The notes under the pieces are model-generated. The model was not told the origin of the DNA. It made no database searches and saw only the letters and a program-made list of their open reading frames with translations. 64,000 nucleotides of DNA from Euglena gracilis (Eukaryota). This document shows, piece by piece, positions 3,001-64,000 of the stretch. The position numbers were made by a program, and so were the translations under genes. The stretch covers positions 28,638,417-28,702,416 of the forward strand of contig CP154954.1 in the NCBI GenBank assembly GCA_039621445.1, in the 5' to 3' direction. How positions within the stretch are numbered: the stretch's first letter is position 1; each line of letters opens with the position of its first letter.

Positions 3001-3487
3001 CACAGTGAGGCGGTGTTGAGCATAAACCCCCCAAATAATAAACCCCCCCTGAGGACCGATTTCGGCCGCCCAAATAATAAACCCCCCCCTCTGGCAGGTG
3101 TGAGGGCAAAGAAAAAAAGGGTCAAAAATTAGCAGAAATGTTGCAAAAAATCACAAAAATGGATCAAATTGGTGCAGAAAATATGCCAAAAAAGCACCCA
3201 TTTTTTTTTAAAAAAAGCCCAAAAATGCCAAAAAAAGTGACCATTGGAGCCTGTGGAGGGGTTTTCGGGTCAATTTTTGTCTTCGAAATTTTTGCCCAAA
3301 TAATAAACCCCCCCTGGACCCCAACTTTGGGTGCCCAAATAATAAACCAGGGGGGTTATTATTTGGGCGTGTTAATTGCATTTGCAAAGCCTCTGGAAAG
3401 AAAATGCAAAAAAGGACATCCAAAGGACATCCAATCACAGTGCAATCGCAATTGGAACCGCAGTGTAGGGACCTTCCGTCCAAAACC

Positions 3488-3928
3488 CGGGGGGGGGGAA
3501 TTGATATCGGAGGCCTTCGTAAAAATTGCGGAAAATTTGTGAAAATTGTGGAAAATTTGCGGAAAAATTGATATCGGGAATATACACATTTCTGCTTGAG
3601 GGGACTTAGAAATTTTTCAATTGTGAGGTTCAGAACACCACAACACCCACGTCGATGCAGGCGAGCACAAATCAACACGCTTGAAGGTCTTGCACAGGTA
3701 GGACGCACCCAATCCTGTGACCAGTGGTGCACTTGTGAGAAAGATTGGTAAACTGGGGGGAACAAAACATAATAGCACACCTGTTGATCCATTTGAAGAA
3801 TGGCTTGAACTCATCTTCCATCTTCGGTGGTGGGAAAAAAATTCTGCGAAAAAAAAAATGCAAAAAAACTGCGGAAAAATTGCGGAAAAATTGCGGAAAA
3901 ATTGCGGATATCAAATCCCCCCCCCCTG
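3488..3928 (+). mobile_element. MITE family A copy 1
   Basis: TIR C(A/G)G(n)..TTGATATC; subterminal AAAATTGCGG repeats; TSD CAAAACC; core shared with copies at 37391 and 51930. Confidence 0.9.
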
Positions 3929-4146
3929 CAAAACCAGCCCCACTTGGTGCCTGGGGAGGGGGAATTCTCAGGAGCAGTACATTTCTGTTGTGGCACACAC
4001 ACACACACACTCACACACACACAAACACCCACCCACCCACCCACACCCACACACATGCAGCCTTCCCCATCTGAGAGGGGCAGTCCGGTGAGAGGGGGCG
4101 ACGGAATGAGCGGACGCCATCAGGGGCAGATGGATAAGGATAGTGC

Positions 4147-4213
4147 TCAATTGTACCGCTGGGCCTTTGTCCGGCCGATGGAAAAGACATCAAAGCCGAT
4201 TTCCCGCAGGGCC
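4147..4213 (-). CDS. UGDH: UGDH exon 13, terminal ([21 protein letters not shown])
   Basis: Typical LRxIGFxVxxIG C-terminus; TGA at 4149-4147. Confidence 0.93.
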
Positions 4214-7200
4214 GGCTCCAGGCCGTGGCTTCTCCACGTAGCCGTGCGGGAAACTTCTGGAGAGGGCTGCCCCCCCCCCCAGGGTTTGATATAAAGGCGG
4301 GGGGGGGGGGTCGGACCTCCCCTCCGGTGCAGGAGGGGGGAGGTGGGGTGCCCCCCCACCTAAACAGTGGCGCAGTCCGGCTGACTGATTTTCGGCGAGC
4401 GCGAAGCGGCGGGCCAAAAAAAATTAACCCCAAATGGCAAACATGTCATTTTGGACACTTTTTGGGCGAAATTTGTCAAAATTTTCCAGCGCAAAGTGAA
4501 AAGTGTCAGAAGGAAAATTAAACTATGTTTTTTGATTTTTTGGGGGAGGGTTGGTCTGGAACCCCTCCCTTGGCAGGGGGAGGGTGTCCGACCCATACCA
4601 TTACTTGGCGACCCGGGGGGTCACTTTCCACTCTGAAAAAAACCGGTCAGTCACTTTTTCCGAAAAAGCAGTCAGTCACTTTACCCCCCGGGCGGGGGGG
4701 GGCACTCTTGAATATGCAATGAACATTTGCCAAGAAATCTCAAAAAATCCAAAAAAATTCCGGCGCCTTTGGTGCCAGGCCTGCCCCCCCCCCCGGGGGG
4801 TCTTGGCCAGAAAACCAGTCAGTTCCCTCTGAAAAAACCAATCAGTCACCCCCCGGGGGGGGGGGGGTAGTTGGACAGGTGTTAAGCAATGGCATGGTCC
4901 GACCCCCTGTTCCAGGAGGGGAGGCACCCCACCCCACCTAAACCCCGCATACCCTCTGTATATTGAACCTTGCCCCCCCAGCAATTGTCACACAACAATT
5001 TAGCCAGCAGATGTGGGGGGGGGGCTGACAAATTGGGGGACGGCAAAAAGGCAGGCAGAGGGGGTGACATTTGCCCACTGGGGTAGACGAATAATCAGTA
5101 ACCTTCCGATCTCTTGAAAACACTTTTGATCCCTTCAAGCACATTCTTGAGCATTCAAATCCCGAGTTCATGCGTACATCCAGAGATTGATCAACCAAAA
5201 CTTCCAAAGACTCCATCTTTTGGTGCATTTTTTGCCATTGGCAAATTGCCAAAAGTTGAGGGGGTGACAGTTGCCGCCGGGGAGGTATTACCATGCGGTC
5301 TGGACACAGAAGGGAGGTTCATCGTATCCCCCACCCGGAGCAATGGCCTGACCTTCAGGTCCAGGTACCCACGCCCATCAAACAGGAAGGCGGGCTTCGT
5401 CATCTCCTTGAAGATCTGCTGGTAATCCAGCGTCTTGAACTCGTCCCATTCGGTCTTCGGTAGGGAAGTTCAACCGTCCGGGTCAGCAAGCTTTACTGGG
5501 AGAGGGTTCAGCGCCGTCCTGGTGGGGACTCTGCGAAAGCTGAACAGAGAGAGAGAGAGTCAAATTTCCAGGGACAATCTTCAATCGGGGTCACAATCAA
5601 CCGTGGGAGCTGTTTGTCTGGGCCGACAACATGGCCCCCAAGCCAAACAAATCTATGGCCCCCAAGCCCAACAAATCTGACACAAAAAAAAACAACTGAT
5701 CAGTGGTGGTGAGGTGGCGATTTGCACTTCCCTCGCCAACACCACAATGGCGTGGGCATTCTTACACGCCTCCACGGCCGACTTCTCAATCCGGTAATTA
5801 GACTTTATTTGGTTCAGCAGGTGCTGGTTGCCCTCTGCCACCTCGTTCAGGTCTTGAAGCATTTGCTCCTCAGTGACCTTAGGGTCATGGCAGGGATAGG
5901 TGCCAAGGCTCGTGTAGCCCAGAGGTAAGAACTCCAGTTGGGAACGTCAAGGGTAACCGCCTTACCTGGCTTGTGGTCGTATGGGAAACCTTGGGGCAGG
6001 TTTTATTTTCACCAACCTGGGGGGGTGCATTGTGCTATGGTTGCCTGCCCATAACCAGGCATCATCATTTTTTAAGGTGTCTTTAAAAACGTTAAAATGC
6101 CTTAAAATGTGCCTTAAATTTTTGGGCCAAAATGCCTTGAAAGTCTTAGAATGCCTTGCACCAGGGTGGGCAGGCTTCTTTTTAAAAAAAACAAAAAAAA
6201 AAAAAAAAAAAAATTAATGAAAAAAAAAAAAAAAAAAAAAAAAAATAAAAAAAAAAACAAAAAAAATAAAAAAATTCCCCCTTCCCCCCCAGACGCGTCT
6301 GAGGCCATTTCCCAAAGAAAAAAACTTTCGGCGCTTTGCGCTGAAACCCATACCTTGTAGCAGCCCCGCGCTTCTATCGGGGGGGGGGGGGGAGGCTTCC
6401 GGCCATGGTCAACCATGGCCAAGCCATTGCATCACCCCCCCTTTAAAAGATTTTCATCCAGAGGTTGGCCCGACCCTTTGGTTGGCCCATGCGACATCTA
6501 TGCTTAGGTTTCGGAACCACCTTTGGCCAAAGTTTGTGTTGCATCAAAATTGTGATTGTATGAACAAAAAGTCCCAAAATCAAATGTATTTGTGGTTAAT
6601 TGAAGGAATAGGGTCAGGGACTCTATTCCAATTAGGGCGTCAATTCAGCCAAAGAGGGGGAGGCCAGCAGGGGCCCGTGCAAATGTGGAATCAGGGGATT
6701 TTTAAGACCGAGGGCGGGGTCCCCACCCCCTGGGGGGGGGGCCCGGGCCCGGGGGGGGGGGGGTCCCGGGGGGACCCACAAAAAAATGGTCGAAAAATCG
6801 CGAGAAATGCTAAAAATAGCATCTTTTCAAAAAATTTCGGCACCTTCAACGCCGAAAAGGAAATCCCACCCCCCTCCAGGGGCCCCCCCCCCCCCCCCCG
6901 GGGCCGGACCCATCCCCCCCTGCACTCCCCACACTTCTCCCCACCCCTACACCAATGCCCAAAAAGAGGAGGAATTTCATTTTATTTTTTTTCATCCTCA
7001 CACCTCCAACAAGAAAAAGGAAACAACAGGAAAAAACAATTTTGGCAGTCTCTGCCCCAGTCCCCCAAAAAAGATTCTTTTTTTGCCCCAACCCCCAATA
7101 AATTTTTTCCTCTCGGAACGTAGTTTTTTTTTTGCTTTTGGAGGTGCAAAATGGGCCAAAATAGACAAAAAAAAAAAAAAAAAAAAAAAAACAAAGAAAA

Positions 7201-10200
7201 AAAAAAAAAGGAAAAAATAGACAAAAGTGAGTCAGAGAATCGCCGGAGCCAGATTTTTTTTGTCCTCGTGTTTTTGCTTCCAATGAGCAAAAGAGTTCCC
7301 ACGCCGGTTGGAAAAGGCTACCGGTTGACCCCCTTGGGGTCCCCCGGCTGGAACTGGGTTCGGCTGGGGTCGAATCAAAAAATCGAAGTCCCTGGAAAAC
7401 AAATACAACTTGTTGATGAGATGGTCTGGGAAAAGGCTGCTGGCCAACTGGAGGCCCCCCCCGGGTCCACTGACAGGTCCAATGACAAAGAATATCCCCC
7501 AGAGGAAACGACCTGTCAGCGAAGGTGCCGAATATTTGCAGAATTTGCCACCAGAATATCTGCAATCTCCTGCTGGGGGATGGTCATACGACCAAAGTGC
7601 CAAAACCCCTGCTTCTGTAAAGCTTTTTTTTTAGGTAACCCAAACCCCTGGCCAGGGGGTGGGTGTCGCACGCACCCCCTGACCTAACCCCGACCAGGGG
7701 TGGTCAGTAAACAGGGGGGTTGGTGGGCAGGGGGGGGGGTTTAAAAAGAATCTTCGGAATAACAAAAAAAACAGGTGGTGACACAACTTGGCACCGTGTC
7801 CCTGGGTGTAGCAGTGGACCAGTGCTCCGTCATCCAGGAGCGAGCTGCACACTGGAATGGCGGAGCTCTCCCGCGTATCGCCCGTGTCCTTCTTGAAGGC
7901 AAAGCCCAACACTGCAATCTTCTTGTTGGTCACTGTGTCAAACATGGTCCGCACGATCATCTCCACAAAGCGCCGGCGTTGATAGTCATTCATCGCTGCT
8001 TCCACTCCTGCGCTGAAACAGGAAGTGGAACTCGGTGCACTTTCGATCCGTTTCAAAAAGGCTCAAAACTCCTGGACAACTTTGTGCTGTGGGGAAAAAG
8101 GTTGAAAAATGGGAAGCAGACTATTTCTTACCGACCAGAGGGAGGGGGGGGTGCTATAGGGTGGGGTGCGGGGGTGCTATAGCGTGCCTGCCCCTAGCAG
8201 GCACACCCCCCCCCGGGGGGATAGGGGTCCGGGGGGGGGGGACCCAGAAAATTTTCATTGAAAATGGCCTTTTCCGGGCCCCCGGCGCCAAAGGCGCCGG
8301 GGTCGGAGGGGGGTGCCTGCTAGGGGCAGGCACCCCCCAAAATCCTACTCCCCCCCCGGGGGGGTCAGCTCAGGTGCTATGGGGTGCCTGCCCCTAGCAC
8401 CCCTCCCCGTGGGGTAGGCACCCGACTAAGCACAAGCCTGGTGCCTGCCCCAGCACCCCCCCCCCCCGTGACCCCCCCCGTGGGGTCGGCACCTCACTTA
8501 AAAAGAAAAGCCTGATGGGAAGAAGAAAATTCAATTTTCTAGAATTGTTGACGGCCATGTTGTTGGAGGATCTGGCTGGCGAAGGAATTCCTGGCAATTG
8601 CCAGTGCAGTGAAAAAATGTCTCAGTGAAGGGGTGGTCACCACGCTGTACCAATAATCCCCCACCTCGTGCAGCCCCAAAGAATTGGATAGGTAGACCAG
8701 GTTCAGGATGTCCTTCTGAAAGCAGGAGCCACCAAATCCAACGGACGCCTTGAGAAACTTCCGGCCAGGCAGGTCCTGTGTTAAGATCCGGGGTTTCTGG
8801 CTTCTGGGTGCCTGTCCATGACAACGTTTCGGACAGCAGTCACTGGGATTTTGGGGTGGGCCCGTCACCTTTTTAAGAAGTAAACCCCGGAGCTTTTTAA
8901 ATTTTAATTTGTTGGGTAATCATGTCTCCTGTGGCAAATGTGTTGCAACTCTGGTGTGAACGCCCTTTTTGTGCAACACAAACCAACAAAACGACGGCGC
9001 GGTTTGCGTTGTAATGTAGTGTGGTGTGGTGTGGTGTGGTGTTTTGGGTTGAGTTGCCTTGTGTTGTGTTGTGTTGTATCGACAGCATCGGCCCGGTTGG
9101 GGCCAATGCGAGAGTCCCGGCCGATGGCGAACGCGACCTCGTCGATGTCCGCCCCGGTGGCCTCGCAGACGGCGGAGATGGAGTTGATGGAGGAGATGCG
9201 CTGCGCCAGAAACGCGTTGGCGGTGAGCTTGCTGAGCTCGCTGGACCACTGGTTGGTGGTCAGGATCCGCTCCCGCAGAGGCAGCTGACCTTGGGGGGAG
9301 GGGGACTGGCGCGCCCACTCAGGACCAGAATTGCAAAAAGAAAAATCCCGGCCATCATCAGATTGTCAGGGGCAGGGCCAGGGACGCATGGGAGGCCTTG
9401 AGGGGCGGGGGGGTCGGACTCCCTCCCTCCAACCTCGTCACTGAAATGGGACCATTTTTTTTTCAGTTTGTGGACGGGCAAAGGTACGGATACCAGTCCA
9501 AAATTGTTGGAAAATCCCTGATTCCATTTGAAAACAGACCAAACCCCCCCCCAAAAAATACGTTTGACCGTTTTTTTTATGTGGAAGACACCAAAACATC
9601 CAAAAATGGGTGGGCAATATGCTCAAAAGTGAGGAAGAAGGTGAAAATTATTCACTTTCCAGTGCAGTGCCGGAAGGAAAACAGCTATTTTATGGAACCT
9701 GCTGCACACCCCTCCAACAACGGGGGGGGGGGTCCGGACCCCCAACCACCTGCCTCAAAACCAAAGGGCTTCCCAACTATCCCTGGGCAGGGCTGCAGCA
9801 GGGTGTGCCACCACGAACGGAGCTCCCCTCCCGGGTTTGATATAATGGCAGGCACTGGGGGGAACCCCCCCCCTCCAGGCATCGCCCCCACTGTTTTTGT
9901 GGAGGGTCCGAATTACCGCCTTTCCAGCAAGAAGCACGAAGCACCGGAGAGAAATTTTTCCCGCGTAATTACACTCAGGGGGGGGGGAAATGCGCTCGCC
10001 CGGCCTCGGAAAAAATGTGCAAAAAAAATGCGCAAAAAATGCGCATTTTTGGAAAAAATGCGCAAAAATGTGCAAAATCCGAGGAAAAATGCGCAAAAAT
10101 CACGAAACTGCAAAAATTACCCAAAAACATGCAAAAATGGCACCAAATTTGAAGAAATTATGTAGAATAATGAGGGAAAAATGTACGTTTCAAAAAAGTC

Positions 10201-13200
10201 AAAAATTTCAAATTTTTGCAAAAAATTGCAAAAATGGTCAAAAAATGCGAAAATTTTGGAAAATCACAAAAAAGGGGACCTAGGATCAAAGAAACACACA
10301 AAACTGGAAACCATCAATGGATGGAAATGGAAGTTGAAATGAAACTATGTGCAACCAAAATCAGCTGTGCGGCACCCATCGTGCATAGACAGAGCAGAGG
10401 AGCTCACAGGCCTTCTGCCCGCTGGGTGTTTGAGACCCACCGATCAGCGCCAGGCATTATTATTATATATTATCATCATTAAAAGTACCTTGAAAAAGCC
10501 TTAAAATACCTTAAAATGCACCTTAAATTTTGGCCAGAATGCCTTAAAATGCGTTAAAATGACTTAAGAAATGAGACCAGCAGAATCTTCTCCGACCGAG
10601 CAAAAATGAAACGCAAAATCTCGGCAAAACAGGCCGAATTCGGGAAGAAAAATGATCTCTGGCATCGCTGAAACATTGTCTATCCAACCAAAACTCAAAA
10701 ACTGCGTTTTTCGACTTTCCTTGATTTTGGACCACGTGCGAAATCAAAACGTTGGTTAGATGCCCGGATCGCCCATGGACCACCCTGGAAAATTGTGCCT
10801 TAAAATTCCTTAGAATGCCTAAAAGTGTTGGAAAAAATTTGACCCTAAAATAAACATATATAATACATGATATATATATATATATATATTATATTGCATA
10901 TGTAAAAGATATATGCAAAATAATGCCTGATCAACACACGGTCGGGTTTCAGAAGATCCTCAATGGCTGTCCCCTCGGCAAGAAACTCGCCAGCACGTCA
11001 GCACTCAGACTGATGACACCGATGTGGTGTGTTGACTCTGACAAGGCATCTGTCGGTGGGAAAAAAATGGACCAGGATTGTCATGAACCAACTTTTGAGA
11101 AAAGGATGACCGGTGAAAAATGGTGGCGAAAAAAATGGGAGCACTGGTGTGCTCTGGGTTTGACAGTACTTCAAATGTGGCAGAGGTGTCAGCACCAGGG
11201 ATTGACAAGAACATAATTTGGGAGTCAAACACCCCATCAGTGGCACACAACAGTGACACAATGGAGCAAACCCATGGCCAATGGATGGGGTAACTCAACC
11301 CTCTGGGTATAGGGCAATCAAAAAAAATTATAACAAACAAACTTTCTGGGTGTTTTGGTAAAACACCCAGAAAATTTCCAGATGCTTCTTTGCCATAATT
11401 TCATATTCCTAATTCTGGAGTGATGTGCTGCTAAATTTGCCAACCTGCTTTCAAAATCCAGGTTTGGTTCTCAATATTTGTGATTTTTGTTGGACTTGAC
11501 ACGAAAGAGGGGTAATCAAGGAAAGTGGAGAGCATTTTTAATGCCCAAAACATGTGAACAGAGTATAGCCAATGATTACAGCCATGGGTCGTTGTGGGTC
11601 GTCAGGGTTGAATCAGAGAGGGTCATTGCCAGAGTGTGTCCTATGTGGGTCTATGGGTGTGTGTCCTATGTGGGTCCAGAGTGTGTCCTATGTGGGTCCA
11701 ATGTGTGACCTATGTGGGTCGCAGATAGGGGTTTTTTGAGGCAATCATCAAAAGAAAAGTCATGGAGGTTCCTTATGGTGCCCTCCTCTGCTTAGAAGCG
11801 GTCCATCCACTCGCATTTCATTTTCATGTGACTCAGCTTCCACACTCCCAGAGCTTCTTGCATGCAATAGGTGCAAAGTGGGGGGATCGTTACAAAAGGC
11901 AATTGTTCGAAACGGTGCGCGGTCGACCTCCTTACGTCAAACCCTGATCAGCACTGCATGCCTTCAAGACTCGCTCAATGGCAACGCTGCAGCGAACAGG
12001 CACTGTGGACTTCTCCACAACCACCTTGTTGCCAGACTTCACAGTCCTTGCAAGGAGGATTTAATCTTCAGAGGGGCCATGGATTGCCGACCAATTGTGC
12101 TCCCCCGGCTTCTTTTAAAGACCCCCCACCCAGCCCAGCAGGGGACCGCCTTGCCCAATTTTTTTCTGGTGCTTCTCTCCGGAACCCATGCCCAAGCTTC
12201 CGCAGGGACACCCCCCCCCCACATAAGGGACCGGACCATACCATTGTTTACCGACCCCCTTACTTACTTTCCACTTTCAAAAAACCAATCAGTCACTTTT
12301 CAAAAACCAGTCACCCACTTCCCACCTCCTTCCTGGGGGAGGGGGTTGGTCACTTTGGCTACTCGGCCAAAATTTGCCAAAAATCAAAACATTTTTAGTC
12401 AAAAAAAAAAATCCGGCGCCTTTGGCGCCAGGTGGCCACGTCGGCCAATCCTGACAACCCCCCCAGGGCAGAACGGGAAGGCCTGGTGGGGGGGGGGGTC
12501 GACCCCCCCACCCGGGAGGTGGGGGGGGGGTCGACCCCCCCCACCCACTACAGCGTTTTCACCGATTTCAGGAAAAAGGGGATATTGGCCGGGAAGATTT
12601 TTGAATTTTTTTTTTGAAAAATGAACCCAAAACACATGATTTTTTGATGGAAACCCACATTTTTTTCACAAAAAAATATCAAAAAATTTCAGGGTTAAAA
12701 TTGGTAGTTTTTAGGAGGGGGGTGAAAAAAACGAACGTCAAAAAAAGTGGACAAAATTTTGGCACAATCAAATTTTACTGCCATTTTTTCTCGTTGAAAA
12801 TTTTTGGACTTTCAATGGCATTTTTTCTGCTTCAAAACCTCTCAAAATCAACATTTTGAGAAAATGTTGAACTTTTGGAAGGTGTGAGAAAATGCGGTTT
12901 TTGGGTGTTTTTGGGGGGGACCCCCTATATGGGTCCCAAAACGGGTCAAAAAAACACCCGGCGCCGGAAAATTTTTTTCGGGTCCAAAAATTGGTGCTCC
13001 CGGAAATACGGGAAGAGGTGGTGGGGGGGGGTGGTCGACCCCCCCACCCACGGGGGGGGGGGGGGGGAGCTCGGCCGGACCCACCGGGGGTCCACAAGTT
13101 AAAAAAAACCCCTGGTGTCCTTCCAAGCTTACCTCCCCTCTTGAAAGGAGTTACCAATTTTGTCAGGCATATAGCGTACCACCAGGGGAAAGAATCCCCT

Positions 13201-16200
13201 GCCCCAATTGGTCAAACGTGCGGCTTGGGGCAATGCTGTGCAAAATATGTCTAAAATTCTAAAATACACTCTGCAAAGCACTGGAGGAAAAAAATATAAA
13301 AAATAATAACCTCTTGGGCATCTACCCCTCCCCGGGAAACTGTCAGCAAATACGGAGGTGAGTAACAGTTTCCCGGGGGGGGGGGTCAGAGGTAAAAAAG
13401 GAGAATTTTTAAATCCCCGGGGGGGGGGGGTTGGACAAGCGAAGCTGCGTGCCACACTTCGGTTTTTTTAAAAAAAGAAAAAAGAATTTTTTCAAAAACA
13501 CGACATTTTACACTTTTATTTTTCAAGGTTCAAAAAACATGTTCATTGAAAAGCTGGAAGGTCAACAAAATCGTTGGGGGCCAGTAAATATTTGGACAAT
13601 GTAGACCCCCAGGGTTTCATGCAAAGAGGGTGTGCAAATTTGGTCACTTGCTTGTTTAAAAAATGGATCCACTTCAGACCAGGATCAATTCCAGGTCGCC
13701 ACACTGTGTGGCTGAACCATCCTTGATCGTTGCAATACGACGGGCAGCACCTTCAATGTACTTCAGATCTGCCGCTCGCCCTTTGCCAATCCCATGCAAC
13801 TTGGTGGGTGTGAGCAGGGATCAGGCTTCTTTTTACCAACCCCGGGGGGGGGTGCCTTGTGCTATGGTGCCTGCTGTCCACAGCAGCACCCCCACCCCAG
13901 GGGGGGGGGGGGTTGGTTTCGGCACGTGGTGCCTGCTGACACAGGCAAATTTCCCTTGAAAACGGCCATTTTTAGCACTACCCACCCCAAAACCGGCTCC
14001 CGGGGGGGGGGGGGGGGTTGAAGGTACCCTACCCTCCTGCTGGCCCACAACCCCACAGGGGGTGGTGCAACTTTCCGAAACAAAAAGAAGCCTGGCAGGA
14101 ATCCATCAACTTTCTGCTGCACAAATTTCACCAATGCCCAAGATTGTATGCATGAATATTGATATTGATTTTGTTTTTTTCCGGTTTTTGTGCTTTTTCT
14201 TTTCTCTGGTTCATATGCCATTTTTTTCCATTTTTTGGGGGGATTTGGTAAGCCCACAGTTGTTGGAGGAACATGCAGGGGTGACCACCTCCATGAGCGG
14301 TGTGAAATGAAATTTCAATATTTGTACCAAAGCTACAGTTTAAAATGAAAAAAGTACACCTTAAATTTGAAAACAGTGCATAATAGTGTGTTCGGTGCAT
14401 AATATGCATAATCAGTCCAGAGGTTTCCATGAGGTTGCACCCATGTGTCTCCTCCTCACCCTCTCCTCAAAATGTCGGGGGGGGGGGGGCGGTGCACCTG
14501 GATGGGTGGATGGGGCAAGGCTGGTTATTGGATATCGCTCAATATCGCAAATATCGAAAATATCGCCAAGGGGTGCAATATCTCGCAAAAATATCGCAAT
14601 CCCTCTTTTTTGCCCTTCTACCGAAAATCCCTATTTTGTGCGTTTCCTCTGCGTCTGCGTTTCCTCCCCTCATATTGCACCAAATCACCAAATTCATAGG
14701 GGAAAACAAATAAAGAAATGGCAAGCAGATGTGACACAATTTTCAAATGACTTGGCTGAATTTCCTTAAAAAAAATACACGCGAAAAAAATGTGCTCCAG
14801 AAAAGAGTCGTTGACAGGGGGGGGGGGTGTCAACAACACGCTGTGTCTTGGACAAGGGGAGGAAGGGGGTATGTGATTTCTTGGGTCCCAGGAAATGTAA
14901 TCCTGACTTTTGGTTACCTGAGGCTTGTAGGCAGATGGAGCCTGGTCACCACGGAGGCTCTGTGGAGGCTCCGCGGAGCCTCCTCCAGGTGACCAATTTT
15001 GTGCAAAGCCATCTCGCACAAACAAATCACACCAGATCCCACTGTCCCACACCATAACACACCATATTTTGCAGCTTTCCACCATTTTCTTTACAATTTT
15101 TTTGCAATTTTTTTTTATATTTTGGGGCCTTTATAGAAGCTAACCCTTGACCCTACCGAGAGAGAAAATTGCAATACCACCACCACCCATCGGAGTCTTT
15201 TCACCAAAATGTGGTTGCCCACAGGTTGTCTGTATTCGGCCAGACTGGAAGAAACACTGTTCAGTTGTTCTTTGTTCCATCGTTCTCTTGGGGCAGTTCG
15301 GGGTTTGCCACACACACACACACACCATCATGCACATGCACCTGACAGGGTTTACACAGCGGCATTTACCTGTTGGCAACACCGTCCCAGTGGCATGTAC
15401 ACCACCCCAAACCCCCCTGCTGACTCTCCGTGTGACTTGTGGGGGGGATTCCCAAAAAGCCCACATCACCCTCCACCATCGGGGGGGGGGGGGGGTGGCT
15501 TTAGTCACACTTCTTTCACAATCATTCCAGCATTCTTCTCCCATTAATGCCACTCCCTGAATGTGTTCACAGACATAAACACGATGTCCGCTTCTTGGAG
15601 TTCCTCATCGAAGCTGGTGGTGAAGAAAAGGTTCTTGCCACGCTGCTGCTTTACAATCTCCTCCAGTCCCGGTTCATAGATTGGAAGTTGGTCTGAGTTC
15701 CAGGCATCAATCCGCGCCTGATTGATATCATGGATGGTCACCTTGACATCTGTCACAGGGCTTCCGATGAGAGGAACTGTTACCGCCTGTGCTCTCCCCA
15801 GGGGGAAGATAAAAAGAATAAAATAAATCTGCTGTCCCAGCACATTCAATGAAACCCCAGAGGAAGAATGGGCAAAAAAGAGCCAAATTTTGGCAAAAGC
15901 GGCTCGAATTCGGTAGAAAATGTGATTTCCGGCATCCTTGGACTATCGCCCATCCACCCAAAAGGTCGAAAAATGCATGTTTCGACCTTTTTGTTTTTGA
16001 GGAGGAGCCCACACCGCGGTTATCACCGCGGTTGCACCGCGGTCACACCGCGGTGTAACCGCAAGGTAATGGAGGTCAAAATTCTCTTTCAATTCACACG
16101 ATGATCTTGGTTTGGATTCCACCTGTCAACAATTTGGGATATTTGAGTTCCAAAAACAGGCTAAAAGATGAATTGAACCAATTTACGCGTATCGCGAAGC

Positions 16201-19200
16201 GCCGAAGGAAAACTTTTGGTGTTTCTGGGAACCTGGAAAATGATGTCTTTGGGCCGTTGGTAAAAAAAAAATCCAAAAATAAGATCCCCCAAAAATAAGA
16301 ACCCCTGCAGTTTTTAAGTAACGGACCCAAAAATCCCGGGTCTCATTTGGGTCTCATTTCCCCCCCTCCAACCCCAGCGGCATGAAGCACTGGACTGATA
16401 CTGATACCTTTGCTCTTGTTCTCACTGCGATTACACCGCGGTTACCTGGGCTCCTCCCGACCCGGTTCACGCCCCCCAGTTCTGCCCTTGGCAGACAGAC
16501 TCTTAGGCCTGAGGGCTTCAGGGCCGTCCTGAACAGGAAAAAAAAGAAAAATCTCGTCCCGTATGGACCACCCTGGCTCTCTCCATGCACCCTTGGGGGT
16601 CAGGGCCAAAGATGCTGTTCAAAACAAACACTTCAGACTGAGAAACATGTTTAACCCCCCAAAACCAACAAAAAAGCATGCATGAAACTTTTATTTGGCA
16701 AAACCATTGCCTTGTTGTACCCGCCCCCCCCCCCTTGTCTAACGACCGGGTTCCTACGACCCCCGACCGGGGGGGGGGGCGTACCCCCCCAACCTGCAAC
16801 CCCCGACCGGGGGGTGGTCTTACCACTAGGGGCAAAACAAAACCAAAAGCCAAAAAAGGTGCAATTTCATAACGGTAATATTTCTCCCCATGAGGTAAGG
16901 GACCAATAACCATAGCAGCAACAGAGGTGCTATCACTACGCTCAAACAAAACAGGACTCCCCGGAGGGAACACGAGGAACACTCAATGGACAGGAAACAC
17001 GGGAAAAAAGCTGGTCGACAAGCACATGAGAGGTAAAACATTTTGGTGGTCACCTGCAACCCCGACCGGGGGGTGGTCGTACCCCCCCCCCCCCAACCTG
17101 CAACCCCCGACCGGGGGGTGGTCGGTATGTAGGGGTGGTCGGTGGACAAGGGGACAAGGGGGGGGGGCGGGTACTATATCGAGAACTGTGTCCCAGACGC
17201 CGGTTCGGGCGGGAAACCTGTGCCTGGGACGCCGGTTCGGGCGGTAGCCCGAACGGGCCTCCCAGGCACAGCTTACCCGCCCGAACCGGCGTCTGGGACA
17301 CAGTTCTTGAAACCATGGCTAGGGGCTCCGTTTTCATGCCCGAACCGGCGGCTAGGGAATCACGGCCAATTTCGCCCAAAATACCCATGTTTGGGGCAGT
17401 TTTGGGCGATTTTGGCCCAAATGGGCCGCCGGTCAAAAATGGCAGATTCCACACTTATGAAGCCATGTTACCCATTAATCGAAAGCTCTTCTCAAGGGCT
17501 TTCGACAGATAATCACAGGATTCGGCCACAATGCACGCAGCGCTTATTTTCAGCGATCGTGTATTCCAAAATTTGACATCCTAATTTGTCAAATCCCACA
17601 GTTCAGGTTGCAAATTGCATATCAAACGAAAGGTCTCGCCAACACCTTTCGCTTGGTACCCACAGAACTCAGCCAGATTGCAAAGCGACCTCAAAATCAG
17701 CGATCGCATTTTTCCGCATTTTTCGGACCCCATTTGCATATCTGAAATTGCACTTTTCAGCTGCCATGTTACCCATCGATCGAAAGCTCTTCTCAAGGGC
17801 TTTCAGCAGATGGCCTTAGATTTCAGCCATGCTGTGTGGTATTCTATTTCAGAAATTCTCCAAAATTGGCCAAAAGGAAACTTTTCCTCAAAAACCCCCA
17901 ATTTTTGGCCCAAGACCACCCAAAAGCTGCGCAAATGTGATTACCACATGTCTACAAACCCTTTTGGACACTTTTTGGCACTTTTATTTTGGGTCCCCCA
18001 GACGCCGGTTTCCCGCCCGAACCGGCGTCTGGGACGCCGGTTCGGCGCAGAAATTTCCCGCCCGAACCGGCGCCCCAGACGCCGGTTCGGGCATGAAAAC
18101 GGAGCCCCCAGAGACGGTTTCAAAAACAGGTTGTTTTATTCTTGACATCCTTAATCAGAATTATACCGTTGCTCAGCAACACCCCCCGGGGGGGGGATCT
18201 GGAAAACCAATCACCCAACTCCCCAACCCCTCCAGGGTCGGTCTCAGGCTTCTTTTTAAGACCCCCGGGGGGGTCCCCCCCCACCCACCCAGGGTGGCGC
18301 GGGACCCCCCCGGGGGGGGGGGGGGGCGGGGACCCCCCCCCCAAAATCGGGCCCGTTAAAGGCAATTTCCAAAAATTTTCGGCGCTTTGCGCCGAAAAGG
18401 TATACCCAGCGCCTCCGGCGCGGGACCCCCCCCCCCAGGGGGGGTCCGGCCCGGACCCACCCACCCACCCCTCCCCCCGGGGGGGGGGGGGTCTGCTGAC
18501 TTAAAAAGAAGCCTGGTCGGTCTCTGGCCACTGGGACCAAAATGACTCAAAAATCAACACTTCCACTCTGGAAATAATGGTTCAGTCCAGGGGTTTCCTT
18601 AAAGACCCTGGGGGGGTTACCGCTAGGGAAAAAAAAGGTGCTGGCTGGAAAAGGGGTCTACCGGCAGCTGAACCGGGCTGGCACCTCGAAAACAGGCAAG
18701 AAAGCCCGAATCCAGCCCGAATCTCCGTTGACAAGTGCCTCTTTTTGAAGCCTGAAAATTTTTTGAGGGCTGCAGCCGGCTGTTCAGAAACGGGATAAAT
18801 TGGCCCCTACACGGTACCAGGTACCCCAAAGAGCCGCCCAACTGGGGTTAATGCACATGGGGGGACCCTCGCTTGGCGCCTCACTCAGGTCCCCCCATGT
18901 TTTTAACCCTAGTTGGGCGGCTCTTTGGGATTGCTGGGAACCTTGTAGAGACCAATCTAATAACGTTGGAGGCTAGGCGCGCCGCTCGGGGGGGTCCGGG
19001 CCCCCCCCCCTCCCCCCCCCCGCGCGGCCCCTGCGCGGCCGCCCGCGCGGCCGCTCGCCCCCCCCTGGACCCCCCCCCTCCCCCCCTGTGCCTAGCATAG
19101 CCAAGAAAAAAATTTTTGGTGAAAAAATCGTGATTTTTGAGGCCCAAAAATGACCAAAAATGACCATTTTTGGACACAAAATGGCTAATTTGAGGGCCGC

Positions 19201-20494
19201 ACGCTCTGCGCGCTGCCAAAAAAGCACTGTTTTGCTCAAAAATGGCCCAAAAAGGGCAAAAAATGACCACTTTTTGGACCCGAAAATCACAAACCGATTT
19301 TAGGATGCGTTCCGCCCGCGCGGGCCGCGCCTCGGACCCCCCTCCGGCCCACCGATTTTAGGATGCGTTCCGCCCGGCGCGGCGCGCTCGCGGACCCCCT
19401 CAGGCCCCCCCCCCCCCCCGGGCCTCACCCGCGCGGCGACACGCGCGGCCGCTCAGCCCCCCCCTCAGACACCCCCCCCCCGCTGTGCCTAGCCTCCGTT
19501 GAGCAGGAAATGTTCTGCTGTTTGCATAAGAATCATAACCCTAACCCAACTCATATAACCCTTCAAATAACGTCAGAAATTCTTTTTGGCCACGGGTTAA
19601 CGCCACCAGGAATTGTTTTGCAATGCCCCCTAGCTTATGGGTACCCTCACCCCCCCCCCCTATTTGGCTAATGGCCGGGCTCCTTCGGACCCCCAATTAG
19701 CCAATTTGGGAGGGGGGGACAATTGGGGGGGGGGGGGGGTAACCCCGGCCAATGGGCAATAAGCCCGACCCCCCCCCAATTGGCTAATGGACCGTCCAAC
19801 GGGACCCTCAATTAGGGGGGGGGGTGAGGGTATATGCAAAAATGGCCTTTTTATCCTTTTTATGTTCCGGGGTTTGGCCAAGGGTTTGGATGCTTTTGAA
19901 AAGGAAAACCATTGAGGTCGTTTCTACCGACCATATGTTCGGCCCGACCTCCAAATGGTCAGGCCGACCATATGGTCGGCAACTGCAACAGGTCGGGCCG
20001 ACCAGTCCTTTGAAAAGGGGGGGGGGTAATGCGGTACAGTGGCCATTTCTGTCGACCTCCAGAGGTCGATAACAGCATGGTTGGGCCTTGGGCCGTGCCG
20101 ACCTAGGTCGGCCCAACCTCCAGAGCAAGCATGGCCAACATCCGCCCGGGGCCCGAATCCAGTGGGTTGGAATTTTTCCGCCAAAATTTGGAACTGAAAG
20201 CTTAAAACCGAAATCCCTCAAATTGCCATGCCATTCTCACTCTTTTTTCAAAAAAATATTCAATCCAGCTTCGGCAGGCCATCCGGGGTGGCTGAACTTG
20301 CAGTGGTCCCATCTCGAGACCAAAACCAGGGGTTTCTTCAGCTGGAGGGGACCCAACCCCCAAGTCACGGTCTCCTCCTGTCTTTGCTGGAATGTGAAAC
20401 CCTGTCAGGGACATTTGAAAGCGATGACTGCCATCGTTGGACCACCAACGTACCCAGCGCCAATGCACAAAATCTTCACTTTGAAGTCAGCCAT
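4147..20494 (-). CDS. UGDH: UDP-glucose 6-dehydrogenase, 13 exons, 1428 nt spliced CDS, 475 aa
   Basis: Hand-joined exons give one uninterrupted frame [20 protein letters not shown]...[11 protein letters not shown]. Family motifs occur in order: GAGYVGG (Rossmann), [62 protein letters not shown] (catalytic Cys), [23 protein letters not shown]. Confidence 0.97.
4280..4972. mobile_element. MITE family B copy in UGDH intron 12, carrying a nested element
   Basis: CAGGGTTTGATATA ... TATATTGAACCTTG; poly-C flanks. Confidence 0.75.
4594..4896. mobile_element. MITE family C (TIR CATACCATT.CTT / AAGCAATGGCATG), hAT-like
   Basis: Perfect 8-bp TSD GTCCGACC at 4586-4593 and 4897-4904. Confidence 0.88.
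5354..5455 (-). CDS. UGDH: UGDH exon 12 ([34 protein letters not shown])
   Basis: TEWDEF and PAFxFDGR motifs. Confidence 0.95.
5738..5886 (-). CDS. UGDH: UGDH exon 11 (DPKVTEEQM...AHAIVVL)
   Basis: Completes YDP and AHAIVVLTEW across the junctions. Confidence 0.93.
7808..7997 (-). CDS. UGDH: UGDH exon 10 ([10 protein letters not shown]...[15 protein letters not shown]...VHCY)
   Basis: UDP-binding domain motif. Confidence 0.96.
8639..8760 (-). CDS. UGDH: UGDH exon 9 ([23 protein letters not shown]...YWYSVV)
   Basis: Catalytic GGSCFQKD. Confidence 0.96.
9099..9276 (-). CDS. UGDH: UGDH exon 8 ([32 protein letters not shown]...DSRIGP)
   Basis: Central helical domain motifs. Confidence 0.96.
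10371..10445 (-). CDS. UGDH: UGDH exon 7 ([25 protein letters not shown])
   Basis: Phases match both neighbours; YxxWVP motif. Confidence 0.92.
10933..10988 (-). CDS. UGDH: UGDH exon 6 ([19 protein letters not shown])
   Basis: EFLAEG and PDRV motifs. Confidence 0.93.
11155..11190 (-). CDS. UGDH: UGDH exon 5, 36-nt micro-exon ([12 protein letters not shown])
   Basis: Supplies the LSNP that precedes EFLAEG; acceptor ccCTGgtgct|. Confidence 0.9.
11633..11720 (+). repeat. Short tandem repeat of GTGTGTCCTATGTGGGTC-type units (4 copies)
   Basis: Seen directly in UGDH intron 4. Confidence 0.85.
11950..12046 (-). CDS. UGDH: UGDH exon 4 ([32 protein letters not shown])
   Basis: EKSTVP motif. Confidence 0.93.
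13729..13809 (-). CDS. UGDH: UGDH exon 3 ([27 protein letters not shown])
   Basis: Conserved peptide, not shown in the ORF track; 3' boundary uncertain by 1-2 nt. Confidence 0.93.
15563..15750 (-). CDS. UGDH: UGDH exon 2 ([29 protein letters not shown]...IVFMSVNT)
   Basis: Conserved UGDH peptide; flanks ccCTGtgaca| and |attCAGgga. Confidence 0.95.
20408..20494 (-). CDS. UGDH: UGDH exon 1 ([29 protein letters not shown])
   Basis: ATG at 20494; NAD-binding motif; followed by intron start tgaCAGgg. Confidence 0.95.
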
Positions 20495-22804: not shown

Positions 22805-23952
22805 CAGGGTTTCCCACTGATTCGTACTTGGGGACTCCCTTGCCCATTCGTACTTATTCGTGCTTATTCGTACTTATTTGTACTTATTCGCACTTATTCG
22901 TACTTCAAAAAAGGGCCATGTATATTCCTTGGGCACATCTTCAACGTTCTGAAACCGGGAAAAACAAGGAAAACAAGTCATTCACTTGAGAAACTATCTA
23001 AGTGAAAAAAAATCGCGCTGTGAGAAAAAAATACAAAACATTACAGGAAAAACACATTCCTTCTTTGCGACTGATGTTGTCCAGCATGCCATGCACGAAC
23101 AAATACTCAAAATGAAACGAGCGGATTGATTAACGGTGTGCAAAGCGTTCTTCGCAGTCACCATTGCAAAACATGCCAACAGCTGCTTGCCGAAGGTTAG
23201 ATGACATGTGTTGGCGGTTTTGACATCAATCAGTCCTGCCAAACTGAAAGACCATTCAGACCAGGGCAATTCAATTTTGTGAGCCACACTTTCTTCCCGC
23301 TCAAAGATTTCCTTATGCTCGCAATGTGTGTGGTATACACTCTGACCACTGACCGGTGCAAACTATTCCCCTCTTTCACACTGCCATGTACAGATGTGTA
23401 CTTTCGGATGAGTCCCCTGACGGATGGATGGTCTAACTTGTTGATGGGCAAACCTAAAAATCATTTTCTGAGGGAAAAGAGGACATGAGGCGTCCTGCAG
23501 CGTAAGATATGCTGCAGCGTAAGATGTGCATCACATACAGAGAAGTGTGAGGGGACCTTCAACTCAGTGCAATGGTGTAAAAAAATGTACCCCCCCCCCC
23601 CTTTATTTGAGCACACCCACGGGCCAACGGACCCCCCAAATGCTCAAATAAGGGGGGGGTCAAATAAGGGGGGGTCAAAAATTCCTTTAGAAATAGGGCA
23701 AAAAAAAATTTTCGGCGCCTTCGGCGCATGAAAAATTTTTTTTCCCGGACCCAAATGCTCAATTAAGGGGGGGGGGGTCAAATAAAGGGGGGGGGGGTAC
23801 CTTTTTCTACTTGGCAATTCGTACTTATTCGTAACTGGGGAATTCTTCATTCGCACTTATTCGTACTAATTCGTATTTTGGCAGACCTCGGCAATTCGTA
23901 CTTATTTGTACGTATTCGTACTTATTCGTGTACGAATCAGTGGGAAACCCTG
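22805..23952. mobile_element. 1.15-kb TIR element with CAG/CTG ends
   Basis: Perfect 23-bp TIR CAGGGTTTCCCACTGATTCGTAC; AAAAAAT on both flanks; subterminal TTATTCGTAC repeats. Confidence 0.85.
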
Positions 23953-24725: not shown

Positions 24726-25165
24726 AAAAAACACGTCACAGCGGTGGTGGCAGACCCAGATATCACGTGCCACGGTGGACGGCGTGCTGAACCGAACCTT
24801 GCCGAGAGACCAGGCCCGCCTGATGGAACAGGCCCATGGTGTCGGTCATGGATGGATGGCAGTGGCACCCCACGAGGCCCTCTTTCACACGACGATTGAT
24901 GCTGAAGACTACCGCATCGGGCTGAAATGGTGGTTGGGGCTGCCACTGGCAGACTCAACCGGCACGTGCGCAGGATGCCAGAGCGTCACTGACGTCCACG
25001 GTGACCACGAGATGTGCTGCATCCGGAATAATTTTGCCAACAGACACAACGCCGTCCAGGACGCTTCATTCAACCTCTTGTCCACAAACGGCCAAAGTGT
25101 CCAGCGTGAGGTTCCGGTACCCAATCAACCAGACACCTCTCTACGGTCCGCCGACCTGCTGCTGG
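24726..25165 (+). mobile_element. Relic of an RLE-type (CRE/SLACS-like) non-LTR retrotransposon, C-terminal zinc-knuckle/endonuclease region
   Basis: DQARL...GWMAVAP...YRIGLKWWLGLPL...CAGC...DVHGDHEMCC...RHNAVQD...REVPVP...LRSADLLL matches the CxxC-H-C, RHN and RPAD layout of restriction-like-endonuclease retroelements. No RT domain seen. Confidence 0.8.
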
Positions 25166-25583
25166 CCACAGAGCTGTTTCACAGAGTACATGGGGGTATG
25201 TGCAGCCCATGGGGTGCAGCACGCCACGTTGGACGAATGTTTTTTTGGGGTGGGCACGCTGGTGTATTGATCCTCGGGAGTTGTACTCAACTCCTCAGTA
25301 GCAGTTGGCATGCGTTGCTGTACGTACAGAGAGGGTTGGCACCAATTTTCGTGTTCGTTCCATGCCAATTTCGTCCTTTCGTACGTACCTGAATTCCCTT
25401 GTGTTTGAATACAAGGTGTCAGATCGCAACGGCCCACCAATTGTGGCCTCCACCTAGCCTTCTTTGCCCCTCTGGCAGCGAAGGCTTTGGACGAGAAAGC
25501 TGCTGGATGGAAGGGACCCATTCTCCTTGTTGGTGATCATCCCTCTCACGGTCTCAGTAATCACACATTTTTTTCACATTTCA

Positions 25584-63142: not shown

Positions 63143-64000
63143 GTGTTGTGTGTGTGTGCGTGTGTGTGTGCACACGTGTGCGTTTGCATCTGCTCACATG
63201 TGCCTGCCTGCATGTGCGTGCGTGCGTGGTGTGTGCATGCGCGCGCGTGTGTGTGGATTCAGATGCACATATATAGCGTTCATGTGTGCCTGTCGGTGTC
63301 TTTCTTAAGCCGGAGGGGACCTGGCAGGCTGGTAGAACCATCCCTTGATGCTGTTGGCGAACAGAATTGGGAAGCAGAGCCCCCCCCCCCTTAGTCAAGT
63401 TTCCGGGCTCAGTCAAGTTTCAAGCATTCCCTGGCTTGGATCTGTTGGTACCGGAACAACTCCCCGCCAGGTGTGAAAATGGTGCCAGAGGATGAAGAAG
63501 AACGTTGCAAAAAAGAATGAAAATAGCACAAGGAGCAACTTACTGAAGGTGGAAGCAGGATATTTGTACAAGGCAGCAGCTGTGTATGCAGCCGCACACT
63601 CAGCAAAACACACAACTCGAGACACACATGCACACACACACAAACACACGCAGACATGCAAACACACACACAAATGCACAAAAGAACACAATTTATCATC
63701 CACACCACACTGGCACATGCACACACACACACACACACTAACACACCCACGCACATAACCACCCACCTACCCACCCACACATCTGGGCGCACCCACGCAC
63801 CTACGCACCTACAAGATGTGTATGTACGCATGCACAAGAATGTAAGCTGGTACAGACCAATATTACACCTTCCCATGATGCTTGCTCTTCCCTTTGAGGG
63901 CCCAGAGTGTTTTTCTACAGGCAGCGATGATGTGAGCAGGCTCTGTGGCTGCGGGCCAGCAAGTTTCATCTCGTGTTTCAATTCTTCATTGCGTCTCGCC

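Follow-up and report, generated by a model that had tools for sequence, protein, structure and literature searches.

Introns of known or proposed transposon origin in euglenids and other eukaryotes

The nonconventional (NC) introns of euglenids lack GT-AG ends and carry a CAG at +4 to +6 that pairs with a CTG at -8 to -6, which leaves spacers of 3 nt and 5 nt; further known features are an acceptor exon that starts with a purine, direct repeats along which the borders can slide and a proposed MITE origin (Milanowski et al., 2014; Milanowski et al., 2016; Euglena agilis splicing code, PNAS 2025). In knock-in tests, the 3-nt spacer is described as strict and the 5-nt spacer as preferred, together with a purine at the start of the acceptor exon (PMC12501133), and a newly gained NC intron bordered by eight-nucleotide direct repeats is described as absent in other E. 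agilis strains (PMC4770533). MITE origin and repeats resembling target site duplications (TSDs) are already in print for these introns, and the idea has less novelty than the initial annotation of the DNA analysed here assumed.

An analogous arrangement is described for the introners of Micromonas, Aureococcus and dinoflagellates, in which a small DNA transposon with inverted ends plus one copy of the target duplication is removed and the exon is restored (PMC11282704). However, introner duplications are given as 3 nt (3-5 nt in Amoebophrya), removal is by the spliceosome, and element and duplication supply one splice site each (PMC11282704). In the Euglena introns analysed here, in contrast, the duplication is of 8 bp and the cut sites are measured from the RNA helix of the element's own ends. 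In maize, the hAT element Dissociation was reportedly removed from a transcript as a new intron when it lay in an exon (Giroux et al., 1994); this is reported to be a single case of imprecise spliceosomal removal through cryptic sites, and not a dedicated system for the exact removal of element and duplication. Typical hAT traits are 8-bp TSDs and YARNG termini (PMC3014272), and the target consensus reported for Hermes is nTnnnnAn (PMC2803484).

Nonconventional introns of the UGDH and SIN1-like genes

All counts of introns, elements and flanks given below come from one 64-kb window, which is the whole stretch of DNA analysed and is Euglena gracilis-like and nuclear. It contains a UDP-glucose 6-dehydrogenase (UGDH) gene that was rebuilt from P0007 ('EG_transcript_14324'), a Euglena gracilis transcript protein to which the UGDH exon 7817-7990 is 100% identical. 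Exons were mapped by tblastn and all protein-compatible junctions were enumerated; the exact NC splice points are those inferred from proteins, with the I12 and J2 junctions placed by homologues from another species. The features of the gene are as follows, with flank repeats read on the minus strand.

4147-20494, minus: UGDH gene, 13 exons and 12 NC introns
15751-20407, minus: NC intron I1, ends CAGGGTTTCACA / CAGGGCTTCCGA (3' arm as reverse complement), 9/12; spacer sum 8; flank repeat 1/8
13810-15562, minus: NC intron I2, CAGGGA...TCCCTG; spacer sum 8; flank repeat 4/8 (CACA)
12047-13728, minus: NC intron I3, CAAGGA...TCCTTG; spacer sum 7; flank repeat CAACGAT / CAAGGAC, 5/7
11191-11949, minus: NC intron I4, CAGGGTTTGACG / CAGGGATTGACA, 10/12; spacer sum 8; flank repeat GTGCTGAT / GTGCTGAC, 7/8
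10989-11154, minus: NC intron I5, CAC...GTG at canonical places; spacer sum 8 in that register; flank repeat 3/8
10446-10932, minus: NC intron I6, MITE-like element plus 8 nt, perfect 11-nt inverted ends CAGGCATTATT; flank repeat GTGTTGAT / GCGCTGAT, 6/8
9277-10370, minus: NC intron I7, CAGCTGA...TCAGCTG; spacer sum 8; flank repeat 3/8
8761-9098, minus: NC intron I8, CGGGC...GCCTG (G.U pair); spacer sum 8; flank repeat GCCCCAAC / GCCGGAAG, 5/8
7998-8638, minus: NC intron I9, CAC...GTG; spacer sum 8; flank repeat 3/8
5887-7807, minus: NC intron I10, CAGGGA...TCCCTG; spacer sum 7; flank repeat 3/7; nested partial copies from two MITE families
5456-5737, minus: NC intron I11, (G)AGGGAAGTGCA / (T)AGGGAAGTTCA, 10/12; spacer sum 8; flank repeat 3/8
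4214-5353, minus: NC intron I12, ends CAGGCCATTGCT / CAGGCCGTGGCT, 10/12; spacer sum 8; flank repeat 3/8 (register not fixed by the data, as either K or P would fit at the junction)

Splicing in the 3-nt/5-nt register yields a full-length protein of 475 aa without a stop. None of the 12 introns has GT-AG ends, and a CAG-like triplet at +4 together with a CTG-like triplet at -8 is found in 10 of them in the protein-allowed register. The UGDH introns belong to the known NC class of euglenids, with its CAG at +4 and its CTG at -8, and the sequence features given above for that class are all found in the NC introns analysed here. The interval singled out by the initial annotation runs between two of their ends, as 10446 is the 3' end of I6 and 13728 the 5' end of I3, both in the 3-nt/5-nt register. 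A second, SIN1-like gene contributes further introns.

48417-53736, plus: J1, conventional GC-AG intron, encloses 48457-48810
54958-55739, plus: J3, NC intron, CAGGGCG...CGCCGTG; spacer sum 8; flank repeat GCTGCGGA / GCAGCGGG, 6/8
62885-63001, plus: J7, NC intron, CGGGCC...GGCCTG; spacer sum 8; flank repeat 0/8

The stretch 48457-48810, previously proposed as a candidate intron, was rejected as a separate intron, since it sits within J1.

Spacer arithmetic and direct repeats at the intron borders

When the length of the CAG...CTG element is subtracted from that of the intron, 8 nt remain in ten of the 12 UGDH introns and 7 in the other two, as well as 8 in both measurable NC introns of the second gene. 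Element plus 8 nt is what is removed in 12 of the 14 measurable NC introns, which agrees with the geometry that the initial annotation had deduced from CAG at +4 and CTG at -8. The direct repeats it had listed for I4, I6 and I8 are present as written, on the minus strand. Its 7-mers for introns one base short of the register hold for I3; those at 48457-48810 exist as well, but in a stretch inside J1.

The border repeats were compared at an offset, the intron length, that is set by the protein. In the inter-stem window of the 12 UGDH introns, positions x and x + intron length match in 46 of 94 cases, while the same comparison shifted by -24, -16, -8, +8, +16 and +24 nt gives 26, 29, 22, 21, 35 and 24 matches of 94, respectively (22-37%). 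Derangement of left and right flanks among these introns reaches the observed 44/96 in 63 of 36,774 cases. With the three NC introns of the second gene added, 54 of 120 positions match (null 37.5 +/- 4.45), and 12 of 50,000 derangements reach this total, which bears out for the 15 introns of this window the earlier expectation that flanks resemble each other more than re-paired controls do. The direct-repeat excess, confined to the eight inter-stem positions, is real and beyond chance.

The signal is carried by I4, I6, J3, I8, I3 and I2. Eight of the 15 NC introns have at most 3/8 flank matches, no better than re-paired flanks, and I1, I7, I9, I11 and I12, for which little or no repeat had been noted, indeed show 1-3 of 8. 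A terminal inverted repeat of 7-11 of 12 nt is found in all 15. The prediction that flank identity rises with stem perfection failed, both for end complementarity (15 introns; rho -0.02, p 0.94) and for stem length (rho -0.12); I10, I11 and I12, for example, keep 8-10/12 end matches and only 3 flank matches.

Non-intron elements with similar termini

Besides the introns, the window has elements whose inverted ends are of the CAGG... or CAT... type; they are given here without strand.

18245-18515: MITE nested in I1, 14/14 inverted ends CAGGCTTCTTTTTA, exact 8-bp duplication GTCGGTCT
13822-14094: MITE of the same family, nested and adjoining the I2 3' stem, duplication GCAGGGAT / GCAGGAAT, 7/8
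41200-41517: MITE, ends CATAACATTGCT / CATACCATTGCT, exact 8-bp duplication CTCAAGAT at 41192 and 41518
4594-4896: MITE of the 41200-41517 family (75% across 270 nt), lying within both I12 and element 4280-4972, exact 8-bp duplication GTCCGACC at 4586 and 4897
55243-55645: MITE nested in J3, 14/14 inverted ends CAGGCATTTGCTTA, duplication GTTTGGCC / GTTTGGTC, 7/8
48460-53310: 4851-bp element inside J1, ends CAGGGCGGTCCGTA / CAGGACGGTCCCTA (12/14), duplication ATCCTCTT / ATCCTGTT (7/8); the former candidate intron starts at its left end
22805-23952: 1148-bp element, 20-nt perfect inverted ends CAGGGTTTCCCACTGATTCG, 7-bp duplication AAAAAAT at 22798 and 23953
36081-36486: MITE, ends CAGGGTTTGATATA / CAGGGTTCGATATA, with relatives at 30646-31061 and 4280-4972; its duplication is uninformative because it lies in a poly-C run
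3481 and 3929: CAAAACC direct repeat, the 7-bp repeat of a 'free MITE'

All four repeats previously ascribed to free MITEs (GTCCGACC, CTCAAGAT, CAAAACC and AAAAAAT) are present. In the six informative elements the flank match peaks at k = 8 (8/8, 7/8, 8/8, 8/8, 7/8 and 7/8), with 0-3 matches at k = 7; for two further elements the peak is k = 7 (7/7), and another two lie in poly-C. A scan of inverted pairs found at least 7/8 flank identity in 7 of 329 CA...TG pairs, where about 0.2 would be expected by our own arithmetic.

The ends of these elements resemble those of I1, I4, I6 and I12, and the sharing of termini between introns and 8-bp-duplicating elements that had been anticipated is found with CAGG..-type ends. 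At 1410 lies an element end that matches the I12 end CAGGCCATTGCT in 12/12 positions, and the CATACCATTGCT and CAGGCATTTGCT families come close to this I12 end as well. The I4 end CAGGGTTTGACG recurs without mismatch (12/12) in an end at 38257, and a single position separates I1 CAGGGTTTCACA from element CAGGGTTTCCCA. I6 and a partial copy within I10 (approximately 6056-6157) align over about 100 nt at 78%, both start with CAGGCAT, and the GCCTTAAAATGC-type subterminal repeats of I6 occur in that copy too.

Origin of the introns

A good part of these NC introns, at least, probably began as MITE insertions, the element being spliced out with one copy of the 8-bp duplication. In this model, small non-autonomous cut-and-paste transposons with CAG...CTG-type inverted ends would insert into exons and duplicate 8 bp of target, and their inverted ends would pair in the pre-mRNA. 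NC splicing would cut 3 nt upstream of CAG and 5 nt downstream of CTG, and therefore remove the element and exactly 8 nt, one duplication copy, restoring the original exon. The 3 nt and 5 nt of the duplication that lie within the intron would then drift freely, while the stems would be retained by selection for splicing. The spacer arithmetic, the local direct-repeat excess and the 8-bp-duplicating elements with like termini are observed here; we infer that insertion came first and that the transposase was of the hAT kind. The transposon-plus-TSD reading is well supported locally and is a refinement of the published idea of origin, to which it adds 8-bp-duplicating element families beside the introns and the correspondence of 3 + 5 with the duplication length. 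The equation of 3 + 5 with an 8-bp, hAT-like TSD was not found in print, and the PNAS 2025 Euglena agilis splicing-code paper uses neither 'target site duplication' nor 'hAT'.

The hAT-like introner model proposed earlier is supported in part, namely in its geometry, repeat excess and 8-bp elements, and the eight-nucleotide repeats described at a newly gained NC intron (PMC4770533) also speak for it; its hAT identity is putative. With non-autonomous hAT elements, the local ones share 8-bp duplications and short inverted ends beginning with CAG; some ends fit YARNG, and the UGDH target 8-mers fit nTnnnnAn. Among ten exon-junction 8-mers of UGDH, seven carry T at position 2 (null 0.22), six carry A at position 7 (null 0.23) and six begin with GT (null 0.058). 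No T2/A7 bias is seen in the second gene (0/3 and 1/3), and the splicing code, with its purine rule, may account for part of the bias in UGDH. The putative hAT label stands on three sequence traits, namely TSD length, partial agreement with YARNG and the target-site bias of one gene. It is possible, if rather unlikely, that the introns derive from transposons mobilised by a transposase of a non-hAT or undescribed superfamily that makes 8-bp, and sometimes 7-bp, duplications. P and Merlin elements also make duplications of 8-9 bp, the CAGGC.. and CATAA.. families depart from YARNG at one position, only 6 of 15 NC intron 5' ends fit it, two elements (with 7-bp duplications) and two introns point to 7 instead of 8, and neither a transposase nor any Pfam family was found in the 30 long ORFs analysed, out of 165 in the window that passed the filter. 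However, the CAGGG.. termini do fit YARNG, the 8-bp TSD is a stated hallmark of hAT (PMC3014272), and the UGDH target 8-mers GTGCTGAC, GTGTTGAC and GTGTTGAT resemble GTGTGAAC and GTGTCAAC among the Hermes targets listed in PMC2803484.

Repair of staggered double-strand breaks with capture of filler DNA, which would make the junction repeats repair scars, is how the 8-nt repeat at the recently gained gapC intron was read by its authors, by analogy with Daphnia (PMC4770533), and was posed again as an open question (PMC6221363). For the introns analysed here it is improbable, as scar length should vary, whereas six independent non-intron elements peak at exactly 8, and the inserted DNA has long inverted ends, membership in repeat families and termini common to introns.

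Still less probable is that junction repeats and exon consensus merely reflect what the NC splicing machinery demands at both cut sites, and say nothing of origin. The purine described as required at the acceptor exon start (PMC12501133) is present in 15/15 introns, and re-paired flanks already match in 2.55/8 positions (32%), above 25%. Nevertheless, synthetic introns with random spacers are reported to splice (PMC12501133); the repeats are therefore not needed for splicing and their presence requires another cause. Moreover, the derangement test retains the shared consensus and the observed excess persists, and elements nested in other introns, which are not spliced alone, carry perfect 8-bp repeats.

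The reversed direction, in which the RNA circles of excised introns return to DNA as copies and the MITE-like elements are mobilised introns, is hardly credible despite reports that NC introns exit as full-length circles (cited in PMC11282704 and PMC12501133), since a circle of element plus 8 nt would keep the 8 nt inside the copy and no fresh target duplication would be expected, whereas the duplications GTCGGTCT, CTCAAGAT and GTCCGACC all differ and the elements stop exactly at CAG/CTG and include neither the 3-nt nor the 5-nt spacer.

Gene models and intron borders

The UGDH gene (UDP-glucose 6-dehydrogenase) lies on the minus strand and contains an exon at 7817-7990 (-) whose 58-aa translation shows 100% identity to the 420-aa UGDH "EG_transcript_14324" of EukProt and 83% identity to the Eutreptiella gymnastica enzyme, which marks the window as nuclear DNA of Euglena gracilis or a very close relative. 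Segments of the transcript protein were mapped by tblastn to the minus strand from 20434 to 5395, and the first exon (ATG at 20494) and the last one (stop near 4150) were added from relatives. For each pair of neighbouring exons, all donor/acceptor pairs that reproduce the protein were listed, the splice points being thus protein-derived. None of the 12 introns, I1-I12, has GT-AG ends in any protein-compatible register. They are euglenid nonconventional (NC) introns, 10 of the 12 with a CAG-like triplet at +4..+6 that pairs with a CTG-like one at -8..-6. Each is drawn here as 3 nt, a CAG...CTG element and 5 nt, shortened to 4 nt for I3 and I10, and splicing in this 3-nt/5-nt register yields 1428 nt that encode a complete 475-aa enzyme. 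The genome-encoded enzyme differs from the transcript protein P0007 by a single residue, K for R at ~5760 (-) (CKNAH vs CRNAH), a change that may reflect another allele or strain. The I12 junction lies past the end of the transcript protein, and homologues from other species fit both K and P there.

The second gene, SIN1-like, was located by a coding-potential scan and protein search at 48312-63148 (+), continues past the window end, and was mapped using a relative of 88% identity that has Pfam PF16979 and PF16978. Its seven introns (J1-J7) mix both kinds in one transcript unit: J2, J3 and J7 are nonconventional and the other four are GT/GC-AG introns. Euglenid NC introns are reported to leave later than conventional ones, in the form of full-length circles and through machinery other than the spliceosome.

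Conventional introns of the SIN1-like gene
48417-53736 (+), J1, GC-AG
55943-56706 (+), GT-AG
56814-58199 (+), GT-AG
58390-62806 (+), GT-AG

The initial annotation had placed a candidate intron at 48457-48810. This is not an intron and lies inside J1, over which the homologue aligns directly, from ...GSDQ (~48416) to EEEDLTFEKE (53737). The CAGGGCGG at 48460 is instead the left end of a 4851-bp element, and its partner at 53310 gives the pair ATCCTCTT / ATCCTGTT.

Geometry and flanking repeats of the nonconventional introns

Subtracting the CAG...CTG element from the intron length leaves 8 nt in 10 of the 12 UGDH introns and in J3 and J7, and 5 or 8 nt in J2; from I3 and I10 the element plus 7 nt is removed, against the 8-nt rule. 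All 15 NC introns have a terminal inverted repeat, with 7-11 of the 12 end bases paired, and all 15 acceptor exons begin with a purine. Such stems are too short to be detected de novo by a 12-nt inverted-repeat scan of the window, and the simple repeats of the 34.2-35.1 kb and 59.4-62.4 kb regions dominate the unrestricted scan.

If an NC intron is a transposon plus one copy of its target-site duplication (TSD), as initially proposed, a direct repeat is expected just outside the stems. The offset between the would-be TSD copies is not free: it has to be the intron length, as set by the protein. At this offset the UGDH flanks match between stems at 46/94 positions, compared with 21-35/94 when slid by 8, 16 or 24 nt in both directions, and the observed sum is reached by just 63 of 36,774 left-right derangements of the 12 introns. 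Extended to all 15 NC introns, 54 of 120 flank positions match, against a null of 37.5 +/- 4.45 (12 of 50,000 derangements reach 54). The direct-repeat excess is real, confined to 8 positions and borne by about half of the NC introns. An element with one duplication copy is clear in I4 (7/8), I6 (6/8) and J3 (6/8), weaker in I8, I3 and I2, and absent from the rest, with J2 at 4/8 (length uncertain) and J7 at 0/8. The 8- and 7-mers first described at I4, I6, I8 and I3 were found exactly as given, and so were the poor repeats of I1, I7, I9, I11 and I12. The expectation that repeat identity rises with stem perfection was not borne out among the 15 NC introns, a small sample in which flank identity was related neither to end complementarity (rho -0.02) nor to stem length (rho -0.12); it could be rescued only if selection holds the stems but lets the parts of the duplication on the intron side drift.

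Mobile elements of the window and their duplications

Pairs of CA...TG inverted ends (11-nt arms, at most 1 mismatch) number 329, of which seven have at least 7/8 flank matches, where ~0.2 would be expected by our own arithmetic. Duplication length was read by comparing the last k left bases with the first k right bases for k = 4 to 12. The match peaks sharply at k = 8 in six informative elements and at k = 7 in two; two more lie in poly-C and are uninformative. [quoted passage not shown]

Elements with an informative duplication length
18245-18515, peak at k = 8, CAGGCTTCTTTTTA ends
13822-14094, peak at k = 8, CAGGCTTCTTTTTA ends
41200-41517, peak at k = 8, CATAACATTGCT-type ends
4594-4896, peak at k = 8, CATAACATTGCT-type ends
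55243-55645, peak at k = 8, CAGGCATTTGCTTA ends
48460-53310, 4851 bp, peak at k = 8
22805-23952, peak at k = 7, 20-nt perfect ends
3488-3928, peak at k = 7

BLAST places these elements in families, of which the window contains additional partial copies. They are mostly nested in introns (I1, I2, I10, I12, J1 and J3) and are therefore not spliced by themselves. The nesting can be layered, as at 4280-4972, where a CAGGGTTTGATA-type element in I12 contains the MITE 4594-4896 with an exact GTCCGACC duplication, and copies can abut, as at 6056-6171, where the beginning of a CAGGCTTCTTTT-type copy comes immediately after a partial I6-type one. A MITE at 13814-14102 landed beside the 3' stem of I2, and the stem itself was duplicated: its CAGGGA is contained in the duplicated 8-mer GCAGGGAT, whose far copy now reads GCAGGAAT, so that pairing is still possible only for the exon-near copy.

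Several introns share their ends with these elements. The 12 nt at the 5' end of I12 recur unchanged as an element end at 1410 and come close to two element families. The corresponding 12 nt of I4 recur unchanged as an end at 38257, and a single base separates the end of I1 from those of 22805-23952. I6 is itself element-like (479 nt, 11-nt perfect inverted ends, AT-rich subterminal repeats of GCCTTAAAATGC type). An introner family would supply introns to unrelated genes as many near-identical copies; here, with two genes in view, I6 has partial relatives inside other introns, namely a partial copy in I10 with the same CAGGCAT start and a 73% related core in I1. By our own count, CAGGGTTT and its complement together have 14 occurrences, against ~2 expected. 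Two further pairs were set aside: 46137-47655 (6/8 flanks, 8/12 ends) is probably a chance pair, as a likely upstream exon of the SIN1-like gene would fall inside it, and 1410-5350 combines two separate things, an element end and I12.

Relation to hAT transposons

The typical hAT traits given in a study of lizard transposons are 8-bp duplications and YARNG termini, with CAGGGGTCCCCAAAC among the ends listed (PMC3014272), and the Hermes target pattern is described as nTnnnnAn, with examples that include GTGTGAAC (PMC2803484). Six of the local elements match the 8-bp duplication, whereas two show 7. YARNG fits the CAGGG.. families and 6 of the 15 NC intron 5' ends, but the CAGGC.. and CATAA.. 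families break it. The exon 8-mers rejoined at UGDH junctions (5 + 3), e.g., GTGCTGAC, GTGTTGAC, GTGTTGAT and GTCCCGAT, have T at position 2 in 7/10 (P = 0.0016; 0.22 in coding sequence) and A at position 7 in 6/10 (P = 0.012; 0.23 in coding sequence), a possible target bias that partly overlaps the purine rule of the acceptor exon; GT stands at positions 1-2 in 6/10, against 0.058 in coding sequence. The T2/A7 bias is absent from the three NC introns of the SIN1-like gene (0/3 and 1/3), and the six element duplications have T2 in five and A7 in two.

The hAT assignment made from the sequence alone thus stands in part: the 8-bp duplications and the CAGGG.. ends agree with it, but none of 30 long ORFs compared with Pfam, including those in the 4851-bp element, matches a transposase or any Pfam family. 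Among these ORFs of one 64-kb window, no autonomous copy with a BED-finger, DDE or hAT-dimerisation transposase between the same ends was found. The term "hAT-like" is a fair description of the anatomy of the elements and does not establish their membership.

Origin of nonconventional introns

The general idea of a transposon origin is already published. The CAG/CTG positions were described in 2013 together with a proposed MITE origin (PMC3935182), and a 2024 review mentions TSD-like sequences at NC intron junctions (PMC11282704). In a 2025 E. agilis study, in which NC introns make up ~72% of introns, knock-ins showed a strictly 3-nt 5' spacer, a 3' spacer that is best at 5 nt and an acceptor exon that starts with a purine; MITE-like sources are again suggested and the origin is called unclear (PMC12501133). 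Intron 4 of gapC in E. agilis ACOI 323, found in one strain only, was reported to carry eight-nucleotide direct repeats, from which its authors infer double-strand-break repair (PMC4770533, 2016). The literature consulted offers two origins, MITE insertion, argued from the inverted ends, and break repair, argued from the 8-nt repeat. No publication was found that joins Euglena, hAT, target-site duplication and introns, and the equation of 3 + 5 nt with an 8-bp duplication was not found in print. Supplementary tables of PMC3935182 and PMC4770533 and the sliding-distance histogram of PMC12501133 may, however, already contain an 8-nt limit.

Insertion of a transposon with one duplication copy agrees with the spacer arithmetic, with the local repeat excess and with the presence of elements that duplicate 8 bp, although 8 of the 15 NC introns have flank matches of 3/8 or less. 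As an explanation it ranks first for introns that retain the repeat and is reasonable for those that do not. Two things are new here, the 8-bp arithmetic and the presence in this window of element families whose ends are shared with the introns: these families have CAGG.. ends like those of the introns and 8-bp duplications equal to the 3 + 5 nt removed beside the helix. We tentatively suggest that the NC splicing code, which counts 3 nt and 5 nt from the CAG/CTG helix, could fit the 8-bp duplication that a resident superfamily of hAT-like MITEs makes. An exonic insertion whose target position 6 is a purine would then be an intron that can be spliced out exactly from its first generation on. 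This "instant intron" fit, if true, would account for most Euglena introns being nonconventional. Should the link between these element families, their 8-bp duplications and the introns hold genome-wide, the kind of transposon would be named, the odd asymmetric register explained, and the question of origin would become one of counts, which available assemblies together with the published knock-in assay could decide.

Other repeats and open reading frames

A repeat family with copies at 12483-13044 and 48889-49440 (82% over 575 nt, opposite orientation) was considered as a CAG..CTG element and rejected, since both ends are G-run/TCGAC/C-run palindromes of a different family; the motif also occurs as short fragments throughout the window. 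A large inverted repeat at 34208-35084 has arms of ~280 nt that are ~90% complementary and ~290 nt apart, made of TATAGA/TATATC-type hexamer tandem repeats. Dense short palindromic units of TTGCGCAAATGCGCACATCG type fill 59400-62400 in both orientations, and the long ORFs through this array have no Pfam match. A stretch of A/T bases, well over 100 long, occupies 40038-40235, and a long GTT/GTC/ATC trinucleotide microsatellite (53362-53600) lies immediately to the right of the 4851-bp element. Finally, a 221-aa ORF at 24727-25389 (+), with no Pfam match, has a cysteine/histidine-rich tail that, as an impression only, resembles the terminus of non-LTR retroelement proteins.
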